Of a DNA stretch of 64,000 nt, positions 1,968-62,033 are shown in pieces (the first letter of the stretch is position 1; each line of letters opens with the position of its first letter). The position numbers and the translations under genes were made by a program. The stretch comes from Escherichia phage EcNP1. The notes beneath the pieces were generated by a model that was not told the origin of the DNA, did not search any database, and worked only from the letters and a program-made list of their open reading frames with translations. Location: the sequence record NC_054910.1; one strand, 5' to 3'.

Positions 1968-1997
1968 GGGGACCTTTCGGTCCCCATATTTTTATTT
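1968..1997 (+). terminator. intrinsic terminator after gene 54
   Basis: GGGGACC-TTTC-GGTCCCC perfect 7-bp stem followed by ATATTTTTATTT. Confidence 0.7.
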
Positions 1998-2282
1998 ACG
2001 GAATGAAATAAAAGCAGCAACTGAAGCAACTAAACTGTCTTCAATATAAACTTCAATTTTTACCGGAGCTTCTGACTCAAATTTACCTGTTACTACACCT
2101 TGGAAAATGCTTTCAGTCTGTTCTGGCTTTGAAAAATTTTCAGAAGGAAAAATTCCGAACTTTTTATCTGTTCCAAAAATTTTAATAAATTCATCGTAAA
2201 CTGCTTCATTAAAAGCGTTATCAGCAGGAATAACGCCTTCAACTACAAGTTCTTGACCTAAAAAGCGCAAAGAAGATTTCAT
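1992..2282 (-). CDS. hypothetical protein (96 aa)
   Basis: Track ORF between gene 54 terminator and alt paralog; preceded by an early-promoter-like element. Confidence 0.45.
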   Translation of the reverse strand: MKSSLRFLGQELVVEGVIPADNAFNEAVYDEFIKIFGTDKKFGIFPSENFSKPEQTESIFQGVVTGKFESEAPVKIEVYIEDSLVASVAAFISFRK

Positions 2283-2309
2283 TTTATGTTCCTCATGTTA
2301 TGTCAGTAA

Positions 2310-2344
2310 GATTATTATAACACAACACGAGGGACTTGTAAACT
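2310..2344 (-). promoter_or_regulatory. T4-type early (sigma70) promoter, copy A of a dispersed ~60-bp element
   Basis: On minus strand GTTTAC, ~18-nt spacer, TATAAT; flanked by imperfect 13-bp inverted repeat; coordinates approximate (+/-2). Confidence 0.5.
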
Positions 2345-4400
2345 ACATTTTGAACTTTTTAGACATTCCGTTGATATTAACCAAAGAAGCCAAGATTTGA
2401 GAAACTTCGTTTTCCTCTTCTTTTGATTCTTCTACAAGGAATTGGTTAAATCCAGTCATTGGACGAACTTCACCAGTTTCCATTAGATGGTCGCCATCAT
2501 ATACCGATTCTTCTAATTGTTCAGAAGGAGGAACGATTGTGCCTTCGATTAGATACTTGTTATAAGCAGTTTCTTTCATCATGTACGTACTCACTTTATT
2601 AATCTTCAGCAAAATTCCACGTGGTAAAATAACTTCAGCTTCTGATGGAAATCCTGATAAATGTCCTGGAACGATAACTTTGATTCGCTCAGCTCCTTTA
2701 ATTACCATACCCACGCTAGTTTCAGCATCTTCATTGGCATACGCAGAATGACTACCCATATGCATTAAATCTTCAGCGTCAACAGAACCTTCTCCTTCAC
2801 CAGAAAATACTGCACCGGAATCATCTAGAGCCATATAGTTTTTACCATACTCACCGAAGATATTTGGTTTAAGTGATGTGGATACGAAGTTCTTGAAATA
2901 GAACATTTTATTTTCAATATTATGACGTAAAGTTTTAAAGGTAACTTCTTGGCCACGGTAAAGCGTAGTTCCTGGAGGAAGAACTGATCCTTTGGCAAAA
3001 GCAGAATCCATCGTCTCGATGTGTTTAATAGCTCGTTCCATATATTCTTCACGAGTAGAATCCGGTTTACCTAAAAGGAACGAGTTCATTTCAACATATG
3101 AATCTGCACAATAATCTTCAATTACATCAGACTCAGCCTGAGTTAATCCTTTTGGAGTTACTTCAGTACTTGCATATTCATACGCTTGAGAAGCAGACTC
3201 ATTAATCAATTTATAAACGCCATTCATGACAAATTGAATAATAGCTACCTTTTCATCTGGCGTGGCTTTAGAACCTTTAACTAAATCATTGACGATTTTC
3301 TTAATAACATCAAAGCTATTAGAAATATTAATGTCAGCAAGATCGCTTAAAATTTTATCAGTTTTATAATCAAAAAATTCTTTATTCTTTAAATATTCTT
3401 GAGAACCTTGATATGTTATATCGCTCTGTAATTTAATAGATGGATCACGTAAACGCGCATGGGCCAATGCAATATGATTTCGGAAGCTTTCTAGTTCATA
3501 ATCACTAGATTTAAAACGAGAAGCACTCCTCATACTACCGATAGCTCCTTTGCTGAAGTTTGAACCAACCTGAATAACGCCGGAGTTCATTGGTCCTTCT
3601 GCTTTATATACTGGAACTTTAGATTCAAACTCTTGATATTTCTTAGCAGCGAAGCTATCACCCTGAAGTGAAGCATCGACAGTAGAGTATTGAGCTTGTG
3701 CTGCTAATCGACGACTAATTTTAGTTTTCTGAATAACAGCTTGATCCGTGCGCTTATCATTTTCTAAGGCAATAGAAGCAGCAACAGCAACAGCTTTAGG
3801 AACAGCATTGCCTGTTTTAACATCTACATAAACATCACCAACCTTTGATTCAACCTTTGTGAATAACTCAGTTGAAATAGGAGGTACACCTGGAATGTCT
3901 TCTAAATTGGCATTTTTACGGTAAACCATAATATATGCATACTTTTTATCATAATCCCAGATTTCCTTTAAAAGAACATATCGACCTGCTCCTTTAGTAC
4001 GTACTAAACGGTCGGCAATAACTTGCATTTGACGAGCAGCTCCATTTGTTTTGCTCTTTAGTACGCGGAATAAGCATGCATCAATTTTATACTGTTTCAT
4101 TGTTTGAAGAGCAGTATCAAAAACCGCATTAATGACACCAATTGGATTTCCACCTAAGTTTTTAAGTTTAACTAATGATAGCTTTTCATTGACACCTATC
4201 ATTACGATATGCATCATTTTATCGCCTGGCTTAACGTTTTTATTTGTATCACCGCCAGAGGTGTATGTACAAAATCTAAATCCAGGAAGCACGCTTTCTT
4301 CACCTGCTTGAATAGCAAAAATTTGAGGTATTTTATGCTTCGGGTTTAAGTTAACAACCGGCGCCGAAGCGCCGTCAAATAATTCTGTAATAAGTTCCAT
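2343..4400 (-). CDS. Alt-like mono-ADP-ribosyltransferase, paralog 2
   Basis: 685 aa; N-terminal ~230 aa collinear with the adjacent Alt (MELITELFD...); ART R-S-E motifs LYRGQ / FVSTSL / SEAEVILPRG; shared C-terminal YDGDHLMETGEV; central segment unrelated to paralog 1. Confidence 0.8.
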   Translation of the reverse strand: MELITELFDGASAPVVNLNPKHKIPQIFAIQAGEESVLPGFRFCTYTSGGDTNKNVKPGDKMMHIVMIGVNEKLSLVKLKNLGGNPIGVINAVFDTALQTMKQYKIDACLFRVLKSKTNGAARQMQVIADRLVRTKGAGRYVLLKEIWDYDKKYAYIMVYRKNANLEDIPGVPPISTELFTKVESKVGDVYVDVKTGNAVPKAVAVAASIALENDKRTDQAVIQKTKISRRLAAQAQYSTVDASLQGDSFAAKKYQEFESKVPVYKAEGPMNSGVIQVGSNFSKGAIGSMRSASRFKSSDYELESFRNHIALAHARLRDPSIKLQSDITYQGSQEYLKNKEFFDYKTDKILSDLADINISNSFDVIKKIVNDLVKGSKATPDEKVAIIQFVMNGVYKLINESASQAYEYASTEVTPKGLTQAESDVIEDYCADSYVEMNSFLLGKPDSTREEYMERAIKHIETMDSAFAKGSVLPPGTTLYRGQEVTFKTLRHNIENKMFYFKNFVSTSLKPNIFGEYGKNYMALDDSGAVFSGEGEGSVDAEDLMHMGSHSAYANEDAETSVGMVIKGAERIKVIVPGHLSGFPSEAEVILPRGILLKINKVSTYMMKETAYNKYLIEGTIVPPSEQLEESVYDGDHLMETGEVRPMTGFNQFLVEESKEEENEVSQILASLVNINGMSKKFKM

Positions 4401-4403
4401 GAT

Positions 4404-6500
4404 TTATCCTTGAACGAACTTGTAAGGCATGTTTGTAATATCTATGCAAGACGCAATAATTCCAAGAGATGATTCTACTTTCTGTTTAACGTTTGATGAA
4501 ACAAATGATGCAAAGTCAACTCTGTCTTCTATTTCAATATCACCTGTCATTGCAACTACTTCACCAGTTTCCATTAAATGGTCTCCATCATAAATTACTG
4601 ATTCGGTGAGTTCTTCTGTAGTCATAACTTCAGCTTGAATGAGTTTTGTATTATTAGATGTTGTTCCGTCATTATTAGAAGCATCAGTTATTTTATTAAC
4701 TTTGACCATCAATCCGCGCGGTAGAATAACTTCAGCTTCTGTTGCTATTCCGAGACTTCCTGGATATACAACATTAACTTTATGAGCTCCATCAATTGCC
4801 CATCCTATTTGAACTTTAACGTATTCAGGATTTTCTTTATACGCTCTTATTTCGTTTGGATTAATAGTTATTCCTTCTTCATTTTTATCAACTGTCAATT
4901 CATTACGAGCTTCTGGTTCTAAAAGACCAATACCAGCATGTGTAATTCCAAAACGTCCAAAAATGATAGGAGTTAAAGAAGTAGATACAAAATTTCTGAA
5001 ATAGAACACTTTATTTTTAACTAGTGCTTCGTATATAGGAGCAGTCATACTTTGAGCACGATAAACTGTAATGCCTTCTGGTATACGGTCACCATTTTCA
5101 AAAGCTGAATCTAAGTTATTTATAGCAGATTCAATTTCTTTTTCACTCATTACATCATATCGTTCTGGATTGTAGCGGCCTAAAAGAAGATTATTGATGT
5201 CAGTATATCCTGATCCACAATACTCTCTAATGCCGCGCTTTTGCGATGGAGTATATTTAGAACCATCGCGTGCAATGGTAATATCAATCATTGGACCTGC
5301 ACCAATTCCAGAAAAACTATAAATCATTCGTTTGAGGAATTTAGTTTTTGCTGCGTTCCAGGAATTTTTAGTTATTTCTTCCCAGACTTCATCTGGCTGT
5401 CCTTTACGGGTTTTATTATGTTTATCAAGCCATTTATCTTTGTATTCTTCAAAGAATTTATTAACAGCTGCTGCGTATTTCTCTAAACATTTTATTGAAG
5501 TAGTTGGTTCATTTTTAATCGCATTAAGAATTACATCTTTAATTTTTTCAGAAACTTCATTAACCTCACTTTTTGAAAAGAATTTATAGTCATAGTGAAG
5601 TTCATCTGCAGTTCCTTCAGCAATAATTTTTGCTGCCTTAGTTTTAGAAGCTAATGAATTAATTCCAAGCTTCATTTCTTCTGCTTCTGGAATTAAAGGA
5701 GCAGTAGCAGGTTTATTGAAATTAGCTGCAGTAGATTCATACTTCTGGAATAATTCGCTTTCAAATCTAGAAGATTCTAATGATTGACTTTGCGCAATTG
5801 CTCTACGGGAAATTTTAACTTTAACGATTACAGCTTGGTCAGAGCGTTTATCATTTTCTTGCGCAATAGATGCTGCAATTGCCTCATTTTTAGTTACTTG
5901 AGCACCAGTATCTTTATTGATATAAACATCGCCGACTTTTGATTCAACTTTAGTAAAGAGCTCGGTACTAATTTCCGGAACTCCCGGAATGTCTTCTAGT
6001 GATACATTTTTACGATGTATAAGAATATATGCATACTTTTTATCATAATCCCAGAGTTCCTTAAGAAGGACGTATCTGCCACCTGAACGACTACGGATAA
6101 GTCTATCAGCAATAACTTGAATTTGTCGAGCTTGACCAGCAGTTTTAGACTTAAGAATACGGAGCATACAGGCATCAATTTTATACTGACGCATCGTCTG
6201 CATTGCAACAGTAAAAACTGAATTGATATAATTAATTGGGCTTGGACCGAGACCTTTTAATTTAGCAATTGAACCTTTAGCAGTTAATGTAAAAGGAACA
6301 ATATGCATCATTTTATCGCCCATTTTTAAATCGCGATTAGTATCACCTCCAGATGTATAGGTACATAAACGAAAGCCTGGTTGTTCAATTGCGTCATCGA
6401 CATGAACTGAAAAAATTTGCGGTATTTTCTTCTTTGGATTTAAGTTTGTAATCGGAAGAGTAGTATCTTCGTCAAATAATTCTGTAATGAGTTCCATCAT
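4404..6500 (-). CDS. alt: Alt ADP-ribosyltransferase (head-packaged, injected)
   Basis: 698 aa (T4 Alt 682 aa); ART motifs VYRAQ / FVSTSL / TEAEVILPRG; position between gene 54 and gene 30 as in T4. Confidence 0.85.
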   Translation of the reverse strand: MMELITELFDEDTTLPITNLNPKKKIPQIFSVHVDDAIEQPGFRLCTYTSGGDTNRDLKMGDKMMHIVPFTLTAKGSIAKLKGLGPSPINYINSVFTVAMQTMRQYKIDACMLRILKSKTAGQARQIQVIADRLIRSRSGGRYVLLKELWDYDKKYAYILIHRKNVSLEDIPGVPEISTELFTKVESKVGDVYINKDTGAQVTKNEAIAASIAQENDKRSDQAVIVKVKISRRAIAQSQSLESSRFESELFQKYESTAANFNKPATAPLIPEAEEMKLGINSLASKTKAAKIIAEGTADELHYDYKFFSKSEVNEVSEKIKDVILNAIKNEPTTSIKCLEKYAAAVNKFFEEYKDKWLDKHNKTRKGQPDEVWEEITKNSWNAAKTKFLKRMIYSFSGIGAGPMIDITIARDGSKYTPSQKRGIREYCGSGYTDINNLLLGRYNPERYDVMSEKEIESAINNLDSAFENGDRIPEGITVYRAQSMTAPIYEALVKNKVFYFRNFVSTSLTPIIFGRFGITHAGIGLLEPEARNELTVDKNEEGITINPNEIRAYKENPEYVKVQIGWAIDGAHKVNVVYPGSLGIATEAEVILPRGLMVKVNKITDASNNDGTTSNNTKLIQAEVMTTEELTESVIYDGDHLMETGEVVAMTGDIEIEDRVDFASFVSSNVKQKVESSLGIIASCIDITNMPYKFVQG

Positions 6501-6533
6501 ATCCTCTCTAGTGTTTATTCTATTTATAAAATT

Positions 6534-11299: not shown

Positions 11300-11321
11300 A
11301 ACTTTGTGCAATCTTTGGAAA

Positions 11322-11347
11322 ATAAAAAAGGACTCCCGAAGGAGTCC
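11322..11347 (-). terminator. intrinsic terminator (UUCG tetraloop)
   Basis: GGACTCC-CGAA-GGAGTCC on plus; minus RNA has GGACUCC-UUCG-GGAGUCC followed by UUUUUU. Confidence 0.65.
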
Positions 11348-11352
11348 TCAAC

Positions 11353-11529
11353 TTATGCTTTCTGCTTACCAAAACGAGAAGCATCATCTCGAAGAACCGC
11401 ACGTGCTCGGCGCATGATCTTCTCAACAGTTTGATTGATACGAGAGTTCGACCCACGCTTGTAGCCAGCGCGTTTAGAATCACCAACTTTCTTTTCAACT
11501 GCTTTCTTTGCTTTAGCTTGTTTTGCCAT
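11353..11529 (-). CDS. small basic protein (58 aa; track ORF extended to 11571)
   Basis: ATG at 11527-11529 gives MAKQAKAKKAVEKK..., Lys/Arg rich. Confidence 0.45.
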   Translation of the reverse strand: MAKQAKAKKAVEKKVGDSKRAGYKRGSNSRINQTVEKIMRRARAVLRDDASRFGKQKA

Positions 11530-17130: not shown

Positions 17131-17480
17131 TTAGAAAGGTCCTGGATGTCTTCTGCGAACTTGTTGAAGGAGTTGTTGATTTGTTTTTCAACCAATCCTG
17201 GCTTATGAGCCACCACATCCGCCTTCTTTGCATCTTTGCGCAGTTTTTCATTTTCACGCTCAATAGCAGCAATTGCCTCACGATTTTTATTATTCATCGC
17301 ATCAATATAATTATACTGAATTCGCAAATTATCTAATGCTAAAGCGTTTTCATTGGCCGTTTTTGTAATTTCTACAACAGACGTTTCTAATCTTTCAATT
17401 TTACTTTTTAAAATTAAAGAAGTTCCGCCCAATGCAATTACAATTAATAACAAGCCTGCTGTCGTATTACTTAATTGCAT
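17127..17480 (-). CDS. i-spanin (inner-membrane anchored, pseT.3-like)
   Basis: 117 aa; N-terminal TM helix AGLLLIVIALGGTSLIL then coiled-coil-like periplasmic region. Confidence 0.65.
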   Translation of the reverse strand: MQLSNTTAGLLLIVIALGGTSLILKSKIERLETSVVEITKTANENALALDNLRIQYNYIDAMNNKNREAIAAIERENEKLRKDAKKADVVAHKPGLVEKQINNSFNKFAEDIQDLSK

Positions 17481-17974
17481 AAAGTTTTAATAACCTCTAC
17501 AATATCGTCTTGAGAAAGACCGTTAATTAAAATATGATGTTCAGCCGGAGATTTAGAAATTTTAAAGCATGCCTCAACATCTTCTGCCATATCTGACGCG
17601 TTACGATTTGGATTACTAATTCCAAGACGATGTTTTCCCGTCAAAGGATTAACGATGATGTAGCATTTACAGTTGTTAATATGAACATTAGGTTGAGTCT
17701 GATTAATAAACACTTCACAATCATATTTAGCAAGCTGATTTTCTAAAAAGACTTTCATCTCCTCAACTGCATCAGGAAGCATATCACGGGCTTGCTCAAG
17801 ACGACGATTTCGATATTCTTTAATGGTCGTTTTCCGCTTGACTTGCTTAGCTAAATCTTTCTTAAGATCGGTGATATATCCAACTCGACGATTTCCTTTA
17901 AATACAGAAATCCCATCTGTAGTATCACCGTATGCTTCAACGACCATTTCAGTAGTAATAAGCTGTAAATCCAT
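17471..17974 (-). CDS. alc: Alc-like protein (transcription termination on dC-DNA), by position
   Basis: 167-168 aa matching T4 Alc size; position between gene 63 and the spanins as in T4. Confidence 0.55.
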   Translation of the reverse strand: MDLQLITTEMVVEAYGDTTDGISVFKGNRRVGYITDLKKDLAKQVKRKTTIKEYRNRRLEQARDMLPDAVEEMKVFLENQLAKYDCEVFINQTQPNVHINNCKCYIIVNPLTGKHRLGISNPNRNASDMAEDVEACFKISKSPAEHHILINGLSQDDIVEVIKTLCN

Positions 17975-17982
17975 CATAAAGT

Positions 17983-18035
17983 CCTCATGTTGTGTCAGTA
18001 AGTCTACTGTAACACAACATGAGGGACTTGTAAAC
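17983..18035 (-). repeat. copy B of dispersed ~60-bp element: 13-bp perfect inverted repeat plus GTTTAC box
   Basis: CCTCATGTTGTGT-(16 nt)-ACACAACATGAGG then GGACTTGTAAAC; near-identical to the element at 2285-2345. Confidence 0.7.
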
Positions 18036-18038
18036 AGC

Positions 18039-19626
<1,588 letters not shown>

Positions 19627-46445: not shown

Positions 46446-46475
46446 ATAATACCACAGAGGAACAGTCTTGTAAAC
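46446..46475 (-). promoter_or_regulatory. T4-type early promoter
   Basis: Minus strand GTTTAC + 18 nt + TATTAT. Confidence 0.5.
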
Positions 46476-51657: not shown

Positions 51658-51687
51658 ATTATACCACATCCTTGTGGTAAAGTAAAC
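51658..51687 (-). promoter_or_regulatory. T4-type early promoter for the rIIA operon
   Basis: Minus strand GTTTAC (overlapping gene 39 stop) + 18 nt + TATAAT with TGG extended -10; CCACA/TGTGG inverted repeat in spacer. Confidence 0.6.
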
Positions 51688-62003: not shown

Positions 62004-62033
62004 ATCATATCATTGTTAGGAAGGAAAGTAAAC
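62004..62033 (-). promoter_or_regulatory. T4-type early promoter for modB-modA
   Basis: Minus strand GTTTAC + 18 nt + TATGAT. Confidence 0.45.

Follow-up and report, generated by a model that had tools for sequence, protein, structure and literature searches.

In phage T4, early transcripts of e (lysozyme), soc, 49 and I-TevI keep the translation initiation region sequestered, and translatable RNA comes from a late promoter nested there (PMC3014915). A second group of related elements in T4-like phages are the early-promoter (Pe) stem-loops, PeSLs (Arbiol et al. 2010, PMC2839356; Comeau et al. 2014, PMC4122927). Their stems are G/C-rich (RB49/phi1), follow an AGNA...TCNT pattern (PST/T4) or lie just upstream of the promoter, and they were read as terminators. 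GTTTAC is the -35 element of the T4 early promoters, located at -36 to -31 (PMC1524935), and the early promoters are off a few minutes post-infection (PMC2988021). Here we describe a repeat that occurs twice in a 64,000-nucleotide stretch of Escherichia phage EcNP1 (NC_054910.1; hereafter the window), once upstream of alt.-3 (copy A) and once upstream of alc (copy B). In both copies, an early-type promoter lies within a hairpin that is predicted to hide the downstream gene's ribosome-binding site. We favour, with some confidence, the reading that this arrangement allows alc and alt.-3 to be translated only from their own early transcripts.

The window belongs to Tequatrovirus; over positions 1900-2800, it matches Escherichia phage vB_EcoM_Nami with 100% identity and many T4 relatives with 97-98%. 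An earlier note, made from the sequence of the window, had reported two copies of a repeat, each located between a gene stop and the next start codon. Sequence search recovered both, with an exact 54-bp core (GTTTAC...GAGGA) at 2290-2343 in copy A and at 17982-18035 in copy B, both on the minus strand and differing by 6 mismatches across the 54 bp. The location between stop and start also held, with the correction that the genes at both sites are on the minus strand; their identities were confirmed by Pfam. Copy A occupies the gap between the second alt paralog (685 aa, ADP-ribosyltransferase; 2343-4400, minus strand), which is the source of read-through RNA at this site, and alt.-3 (96 aa, DUF5498; 1992-2282, minus strand). 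It follows the alt-paralog stop TAG (2345-2343) and precedes the alt.-3 start codon (2282-2280). Copy B follows the stop TAA (18041-18039) of rnlA (gene 63, RNA ligase 1, Pfam T4 RNA ligase 1; 18039-19163, minus strand) and precedes the start codon (17977-17975) of alc (168 aa, Pfam ALC; 17471-17977, minus strand). In minus-strand orientation, copy A reads (TA)GTTTAC-AAGT-CCCTCGTGTTGTGT-TATAAT-AATCTTACTG-ACATAACATGAGG-AACATAAA-ATG and copy B reads GTTTAC-AAGT-CCCTCATGTTGTGT-TACAGT-AGACTTACTG-ACACAACATGAGG-ACTTT-ATG.

The two copies are unique in the window. Searching with each half of the element and allowing up to 3 mismatches returned these two sites only in 64 kb, with 0 expected by chance. 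An 81-nt query matched 498 phage records, which are essentially all T4-like, and did so twice in 497 of them. The likeness between the copies exceeds that expected from the generic early-promoter consensus, the alternative that the earlier note had named. In the promoter-like set of the window (24 TTTAC[A/T]-N16-18-TAnnnT sites, of which 17 are of the GTTTAC type on the minus strand), copies A and B have 49 of 58 positions in common, compared to a mean of 22.7 (sd 5.4) for all pairs and to 39 for the next best pair. A literature search by sequence with ACAAGTCCCTCGTG and related strings returned nothing relevant. A topic search (T4 start mapping; early-promoter hairpin hiding a ribosome site) returned no paper on these sites; the main T4 genome review was outside its coverage, and prior notice is possible. 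The T4 GenBank records annotate no promoter or stem-loop features at these sites, and no Rfam family matched at either site (E <= 1).

Both copies carry TTTACA, a 17-nt spacer and TGn before the -10 element, and both were called as sigma-70-like promoters. In copy A, the -35 element GTTTAC (2338-2343, minus strand) begins with the last base of the alt-paralog stop TAG. Its -10 element TATAAT (2314-2319, minus strand) is preceded by TGT, an extended -10, and the promoter matches the sigma-70 consensus at 11 of 12 positions. The predicted +1 is an A at approximately position 2307 (minus strand), the A of CTTAC in the loop. In the promoter scan, copy A ranks second in the first 20 kb. In copy B, GTTTAC (18030-18035, minus strand) starts 3 nt after the rnlA stop, the -10 element TACAGT (18006-18011, minus strand) is also preceded by TGT, and 9 of 12 positions match the consensus. 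The predicted +1 is again the A of CTTAC in the loop, at approximately position 17999 (minus strand). By inspection, the DNA upstream of the -35 element, which is coding in both copies, shows AAAA at -41 to -44 in copy A and is moderately A/T-rich in copy B. The late-promoter sequence TATAAATA is absent at both cassette sites, and the middle-promoter table of PMC2988021 has no entry at these positions. A MotA-dependent middle promoter was ruled out, as there is no TGCTT box at -30. A RegB site was also ruled out as a general explanation, as the Tequatrovirus copies carry GAGG, not GGAG.

This promoter is embedded in a stem-loop. The stem follows just 3′ of the -35 element, with the promoter spacer as its 5′ arm, and the loop takes in the -10 element and the predicted start. 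Within the 3′ arm is the Shine-Dalgarno sequence GAGG, 5-8 nt ahead of the AUG. In copy A, the 5′ arm CCTCGTGTTGTGT (2320-2332, minus strand), which carries the anti-Shine-Dalgarno CCUC, faces the 3′ arm ACATAACATGAGG (2291-2303, minus strand) with the alt.-3 Shine-Dalgarno at 2294-2291. In copy B, the 5′ arm CCTCATGTTGTGT (18012-18024, minus strand), likewise in the promoter spacer, faces ACACAACATGAGG (17983-17995, minus strand) with the alc Shine-Dalgarno at 17986-17983. A lower stem is added in copy B by pairing of AAGT (18029-18026) with ACTT (17982-17979). The stem reads CCUC(G/A)UGUUGUG and is A/U-rich with G.U pairs. The observations of the earlier note on this structure were borne out: its 13-bp inverted repeat is perfect in copy B, with two G.U wobbles in the minus-strand RNA of copy A, and the loop holds TATAAT in copy A and TACAGT in copy B. 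Its suggestion of a promoter/hairpin cassette was right, as GTTTAC corresponds to the -35 element of T4 early promoters and an extended -10 lies in the loop, but it missed that the minus-strand RNA is concerned and that the 3′ arm contains the Shine-Dalgarno sequence.

The minus-strand RNA was predicted to fold with -21.4 kcal/mol (z -4.5) for copy A and with -31.3 kcal/mol (z -6.1) for copy B. With -16.0 kcal/mol (z -2.2), the opposite-strand RNA of copy A folds less well, as A-C mismatches take the place of the two G.U pairs. The weaker fold of the opposite strand therefore indicates the sense RNA as the relevant structure. To describe the accessibility of the ribosome-binding site, we calculated what it costs, in ensemble free energy, to open positions -14 to +3 in RNA beginning either 120 nt upstream or at the predicted +1. 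For the copies of Nami and T4, the predicted opening cost was 14.5 to 19.2 kcal/mol in the read-through RNA and 0.9 to 3.8 kcal/mol in the promoter-initiated RNA. Transcripts from the nested promoter lack the 5′ arm whatever their exact start. The Shine-Dalgarno sequence is predicted to be base-paired in transcripts that come from upstream.

The same layout was found upstream of alc in other genera. GenBank phage records served as the comparison set; an IMG/VR pattern scan gave only 8 loci. The rnlA-alc spacer is 57-64 bp long in 11 fetched lineages, and Gaprivervirus carries an extra ORF there. In 8 genera, the layout at alc is built from different, mutually complementary stems. The 5′ and 3′ arms are CCUCGUGUUGUG and CAUAACAUGAGG in Tequatrovirus, UCUCCGUUUAGUU and AACCAAACGGAGA in Gelderlandvirus, UCUCCAUUUGGUU and AACCAAAUGGAGA in Karamvirus and Moonvirus, UCCUCAUCAG and CUGAUGAGGA in Klebsiella phage Shark_ER15, ACCUCUCAUUUUU and AAAAAUGAGAGGU in Bragavirus, ACCUCGUUUGUU and AACAAACGAGG in Marfavirus, UCCUCAUUUCGUU and AACGAAAUGAGGA in Winklervirus, and UCUCCUCAU and AUGAGGAGA in Dhakavirus. 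When each promoter spacer was paired with a 5′-UTR, the mean duplex energy was -19.7 kcal/mol for the own UTR and -10.1 kcal/mol for those of the other genera (8 genera; permutation p = 5e-5). A MAFFT alignment of 11 alc-upstream cassettes and the T2 alt.-3 copy (12 cassette sequences from 9 genera) showed no variation in the -35 element or at -12, -11 and -7 of the -10 region, while the rest varies. Promoter and structure are thus both conserved, because the -35/-10 positions stay the same while the stems vary together with the UTR to which they pair. The opening cost of the read-through RNA exceeds that of the promoter-initiated RNA by 7.8 to 15.6 kcal/mol in the genera with this layout. In Tegunavirus and NHEP10, which have no ribosome-site pairing, the excess amounts to only 1.6 and 4.6 kcal/mol, respectively. 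Judged from these genomes, the putative gate is widespread, not universal. In Gaprivervirus EAWsc9 (fetched stretch 386-700), the extra ORF between rnlA and alc encodes 77 aa and is annotated as PRC-domain; a G/C-rich terminator-like hairpin, AAAAAGGGGTGTACAAGCCCCTTCTTT, lies ahead of it and replaces the promoter/hairpin cassette.

Published temporal classes of T4 genes are consistent with such a gate. The supplement of Wolfram-Schauerte et al. (PMC9697503) places both alt.-3 and alc in the early class for RNA and for protein. Upstream of copy A, alt is assigned middle RNA and late protein, and alt.-1 and alt.-2 middle RNA with no protein class given. For denA, middle RNA and late protein are given, and upstream of copy B, rnlA has early RNA and late protein. 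The temporal class therefore switches exactly across copy A, and the protein class across copy B. A T4 late-promoter consensus, TATAAATA, is located at 6521-6528 (minus strand), about 20 nt upstream of the start codon of the first alt, so that late read-through into copy A is expected; this promoter is the likely source of such transcripts. Its position also agrees with Alt being a late, head-packaged protein.

The following course of events can be proposed. Host RNA polymerase would start in the loop during the first minutes of infection and produce mRNAs with a short leader that lacks the 5′ arm, from which alc and alt.-3 could be freely translated. Both arms would be present in transcripts from upstream, which would arise when rnlA is read through in middle or late transcription, or would start at the late promoter before alt. 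The read-through RNA would then fold into a hairpin of 13-18 bp, leaving the downstream gene largely untranslated. As a matter of speculation, such untranslated RNA might be prone to Rho-dependent polarity. The net result would be an 'early-only' translational gate. This proposal is based on the anatomy of the cassettes, the predicted energetics, the covariation, the conservation of the promoter and the consistency with the published temporal classes.

Variation within Tequatrovirus was analysed in 13 distinct sequences taken from 11 genomes with both copies, together with singletons. Standard pairs are present in 97.9% of the pair cells. Five variable pairs stay paired through one-sided changes (C-G to U.G, G.U to A-U, G.U to G-C, U.G to C-G or U-A), mostly via wobble intermediates that pair on the sense RNA only. 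A variant with GTTCCTT, seen in A copies only, lengthens the helix onto the A-specific flank GGAAC. A G-to-A change that makes the -10 element a perfect TATAAT breaks one inner pair, which suggests a trade-off between promoter strength and helix stability.

Several observations weigh against an early-only gate. Double compensatory changes are missing from the Tequatrovirus sample, as expected from the low divergence within the genus. Copy B of T6 is a natural variant with a U.U mismatch, and the stem of the Gelderlandvirus cassette contains an A-C mismatch. The helices of different genera are out of strict column register, with the 5′ arm beginning 1-4 nt after the -35 element depending on the genus; the covariation therefore rests on the permutation of own against cross duplex energies and not on a column-wise count. 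Gaprivervirus, NHEP10 and Tegunavirus have alc but no ribosome-site pairing, so the gate is dispensable. As the rnlA RNA is itself early, the RNA data give no separate proof of a promoter at copy B. Promoter use and repression at both sites are our inference, as are the points where transcription starts, the strength of the repression and any biological benefit it brings. Lastly, the upstream stop codon lies 4-13 nt ahead of the stem in all cassettes, and a terminating ribosome could therefore partly open the stem and allow coupled translation.

This last point leads to an explanation by translational coupling, in which ribosomes of the upstream gene melt the base of the stem, so that alc and alt.-3 are produced at a low, constant proportion to rnlA and alt. 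The upstream stop overlaps or abuts the -35 element in every genus (TAG-TTTAC or TAA-N2-4-GTTTAC), and its distance of 4 to 13 nt from the first paired base is also in line with coupling. On the other hand, the 13-bp core stem of copy B starts 14 nt past the stop (17 nt from its first base) and is probably out of reach of the ribosome. A conserved promoter in the loop is needless for coupling alone, and the T4 proteins that flank the element differ in temporal class. We regard coupling as an unlikely account of the cassettes, though it is compatible with an early-only gate.

The original PeSL reading, a terminator or attenuator followed by a restart promoter, assumes that the stem-loop stops upstream transcription and that the overlap with the ribosome-binding site is incidental. 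PeSL stem-loops of RB49/phi1 cut expression of a downstream lacZ about as strongly as rrnB T1 (PMC2839356). The elements described here lie exactly between stop and next start codon, and the T4 transcript class changes across copy A, both of which a terminator would account for. The stems themselves fit poorly, being A/U-rich with G.U pairs, unlike the G/C-rich PeSL stems. No U-tract follows either stem and neither site was called in the terminator scan, and an intrinsic terminator was rejected as the primary reading on these grounds. Moreover, all 8 genera have a 3′ arm that ends on the Shine-Dalgarno sequence and a 5′ arm with an anti-Shine-Dalgarno sequence, neither of which is needed for termination. 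Termination thus seems an improbable main function, about on a par with coupling.

A recombination hotspot had also been proposed in the earlier note. According to this idea, the repeat is mainly a recombination substrate, a mobile regulatory cassette, that owes its conservation to gene conversion and not to function. The history of the copies does bear marks of exchange. Among the 11 genomes with both copies, there is no fixed difference between A and B, and three polymorphisms are common to both paralogous copies. The mean A-B distance is 2.27 within genomes compared to 2.76 between genomes (permutation p = 0.019, n = 11). Orthologous distances are 2.95 for A-A and 1.87 for B-B, so that A-B is not larger than A-A and not much above B-B. 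These data suggest that the copies are kept alike by gene conversion (concerted evolution), although the sample is small and recurrent mutation is also possible. The identity between the copies begins at GTTTACA and stops at ATGAGGA, that is, exactly at the -35 element and the Shine-Dalgarno sequence; both motifs are common to the ancestral cassettes of the two loci.

The identity between the alc and alt.-3 cassettes is 89% in Tequatrovirus, 66-79% in the pairs of other lineages and 62-83% in cross-comparisons. Among the lineages compared, only Tequatrovirus carries near-identical cassettes at both loci. In other genera, the alt/alt.-3 spacer contains a GTTTAC/TGn/-10 promoter and a small hairpin within the promoter spacer (e.g. 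CACAAGGAAGTG), with no ribosome-site pairing. The alc cassette would accordingly be ancient, and in the Tequatrovirus ancestor an alc-type cassette may have replaced the alt.-3 cassette between the shared GTTTACA and ATGAGGA motifs. The alc site of NHEP10 (fetched stretch 641-705) has a cassette of the alt.-3 type, with a spacer hairpin ACACC-AAGGAA-GGTGT, no ribosome-site pairing and 79-81% identity to alt.-3 cassettes from other genera, which suggests a swap in the opposite direction, of the alt.-3 type into alc. PeSL-mediated exchange has been documented in relatives.

Exchange as the reason for the conservation is nevertheless very unlikely in our view. The alc architecture is conserved, with covariation, in 8 genera that have only one such copy, which means that the structure itself is under selection. 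If the direct repeats crossed over, 13-16 kb including ligase, gene 31 and cd would be lost, so that only non-crossover conversion is viable, and no crossover product between the copies was seen in the sequences compared. The position of copy A at the edge of the alt duplication, to which the earlier note had drawn attention, proved incidental. A spacer of about 60 bp with a promoter exists between alt and alt.-3 also in genera with alt directly upstream of alt.-3 in the fetched stretch. It is ancestral and marks no breakpoint, and a link to the breakpoint of the alt duplication was ruled out. The hotspot idea thus finds support as evolutionary history only, with a cassette copied or converted between loci, and not as function.

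No more convincing is the RNA processing or stability element that the earlier note had also listed, a helix cut by host RNase III or shielding the 3′ end of the upstream mRNA and thereby separating the cistrons: the near-continuous helix of 18-24 bp in copy B and the T4 copies (13 bp, a 2-nt bulge, 5 bp and a lower stem of 4-5 bp) would suit it, but the suggestion found no support and is kept as a highly improbable rival, as neither site belongs to an Rfam family, the T4 mRNA-decay review (PMC3014915) links nothing here to processing, the inner helix is broken in copies with TATAAT or TACAAT, and the constant Shine-Dalgarno sequence in the stem is left unexplained.

The cassette is a real, conserved regulatory element that is duplicated between two loci and apparently homogenised in Tequatrovirus. 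Within the window, copies A and B are the most conspicuous pair of a broader class. At 6 of the 17 minus-strand early-promoter-like sites, the opening costs of read-through and promoter-initiated RNA differ by at least 8 kcal/mol, namely at 62033, 57072, 46475, 18035, 11299 and 2343 (position of the G of GTTTAC on the minus strand). At 46475, 57072, 62033 and 11299, the promoter spacer is complementary to the downstream Shine-Dalgarno region and the difference amounts to 8-16 kcal/mol; the arms at 46475, for example, are CTGTTCCTCTGT and ACGGAGGAACAG. Other early-promoter sites in the window have hairpins within the spacer or spanning the -10 element. In a second type of cassette, found at 51687 and 47204 (minus strand), a small hairpin, CCACAAGGA(C)TGTGG with an AAGGA-like loop, does not extend beyond the spacer. 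This type is present at several early promoters of the window, and also in the fetched stretches (around 440-500) at the alt.-3 promoters of Karamvirus, Dhakavirus, Marfavirus, Gaprivervirus and NHEP10. Tentatively, and with slightly less than even expectation, we propose that an early promoter nested in a ribosome-site hairpin is a general design across T4-like genera that spreads as a gene-converted mobile cassette.

Some further features of the window concern the surroundings of the two sites. In the gap between the convergent genes alt.-3 and 54, the terminator scan found a terminator-like hairpin on both strands (1966-1987), which is G/C-rich and has 9 bp (ATGGGGACC-TTTC-GGTCCCCAT). It probably ends a short alt.-3 transcript started at copy A. 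Upstream of copy A, the window contains two tandem full-length alt paralogs (698 and 685 aa; 2343-6500, minus strand), as do T2, T6, RB51 and others. In T4, the second paralog is reduced to the remnants alt.-1 and alt.-2 and to its last codons, KKFKM*, before copy A. The annotated alt.-2 frame of T4 enters the cassette and stops at a TAG in the hairpin loop (T4 fetched stretch 4066-4451). A weak Rfam match at 11314-11397 (minus strand) to the Rhizobiales sRNA Atu_C8 (31.4 bits, gathering score 50; E = 0.0066) overlaps a terminator-like hairpin at 11328-11349 and is probably due to chance.

T4 is the reference for temporal control of phage genes, and the shut-off of early proteins is usually credited to promoter shut-off and mRNA decay. 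If an early-only gate operates, a hairpin acting in cis and without any factor would confine Alc, the terminator of host transcription, to the first minutes despite continued transcription from upstream. Should the wider design hold, many early genes would be translated only from the RNA of their own promoter and would be silent on middle and late read-through, the cassette being an early-only translational insulator. Part of the 'terminator' activity of PeSLs would then be translational occlusion, possibly with polarity, and this could be a functional reason for the PeSLs seen throughout T4-like genomes. The two copies would also provide a clear natural case of short regulatory cassettes that are moved and homogenised between distant loci. 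For annotators and phage engineers, deletion or relocation of the upstream promoter spacer would be expected to alter translation of the downstream gene.

Compared to known elements, the cassettes resemble ordinary T4 early promoters in GTTTAC at -36 to -31, in TGn and in T, A and T at -12, -11 and -7. They differ in that the spacer of an ordinary early promoter need not complement the downstream 5′-UTR. With PeSLs they share the order of intergenic stop, early promoter with stem-loop, Shine-Dalgarno sequence and start, the occurrence as dispersed repeats, which recombine in PeSLs and apparently also here, and a match to the T4/PST consensus TTTACW-N17-TAYWAT. PeSL stem-loops may also sit between or over the -35 and -10 boxes, as they do here. 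Unlike in PeSLs, an A/U-rich stem covers the entire promoter core here, with the ribosome-binding site as its 3′ arm; the PeSL papers (PMC2839356, PMC4122927) make no mention of Shine-Dalgarno pairing or of effects on translation. In sequence terms, the cassettes fit the loose definition of a PeSL, while their stems are not of the described type (G-run/C-run or AGNA...TCNT). The closest likeness is to T4 e, soc, 49 and I-TevI, although alc and alt.-3 are not among the examples given in PMC3014915. In these genes, the Shine-Dalgarno sequence and/or the AUG lies in a helix on transcripts from upstream, as is predicted here. A promoter in or next to the 5′ part of the structure produces translatable transcripts that lack the 5′ arm, and translation is gated in time without a trans-acting factor. 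Whereas those genes nest a late promoter (TATAAATA) and are translated late only, the promoter nested here is of the early, sigma-70 type (GTTTAC-N17-TGnTAnnnT). An early-only outcome is therefore predicted, the mirror image of the late-only gates. By this analogy, the cassettes appear to be a variation of a known T4 trick in which promoter class and timing are inverted.

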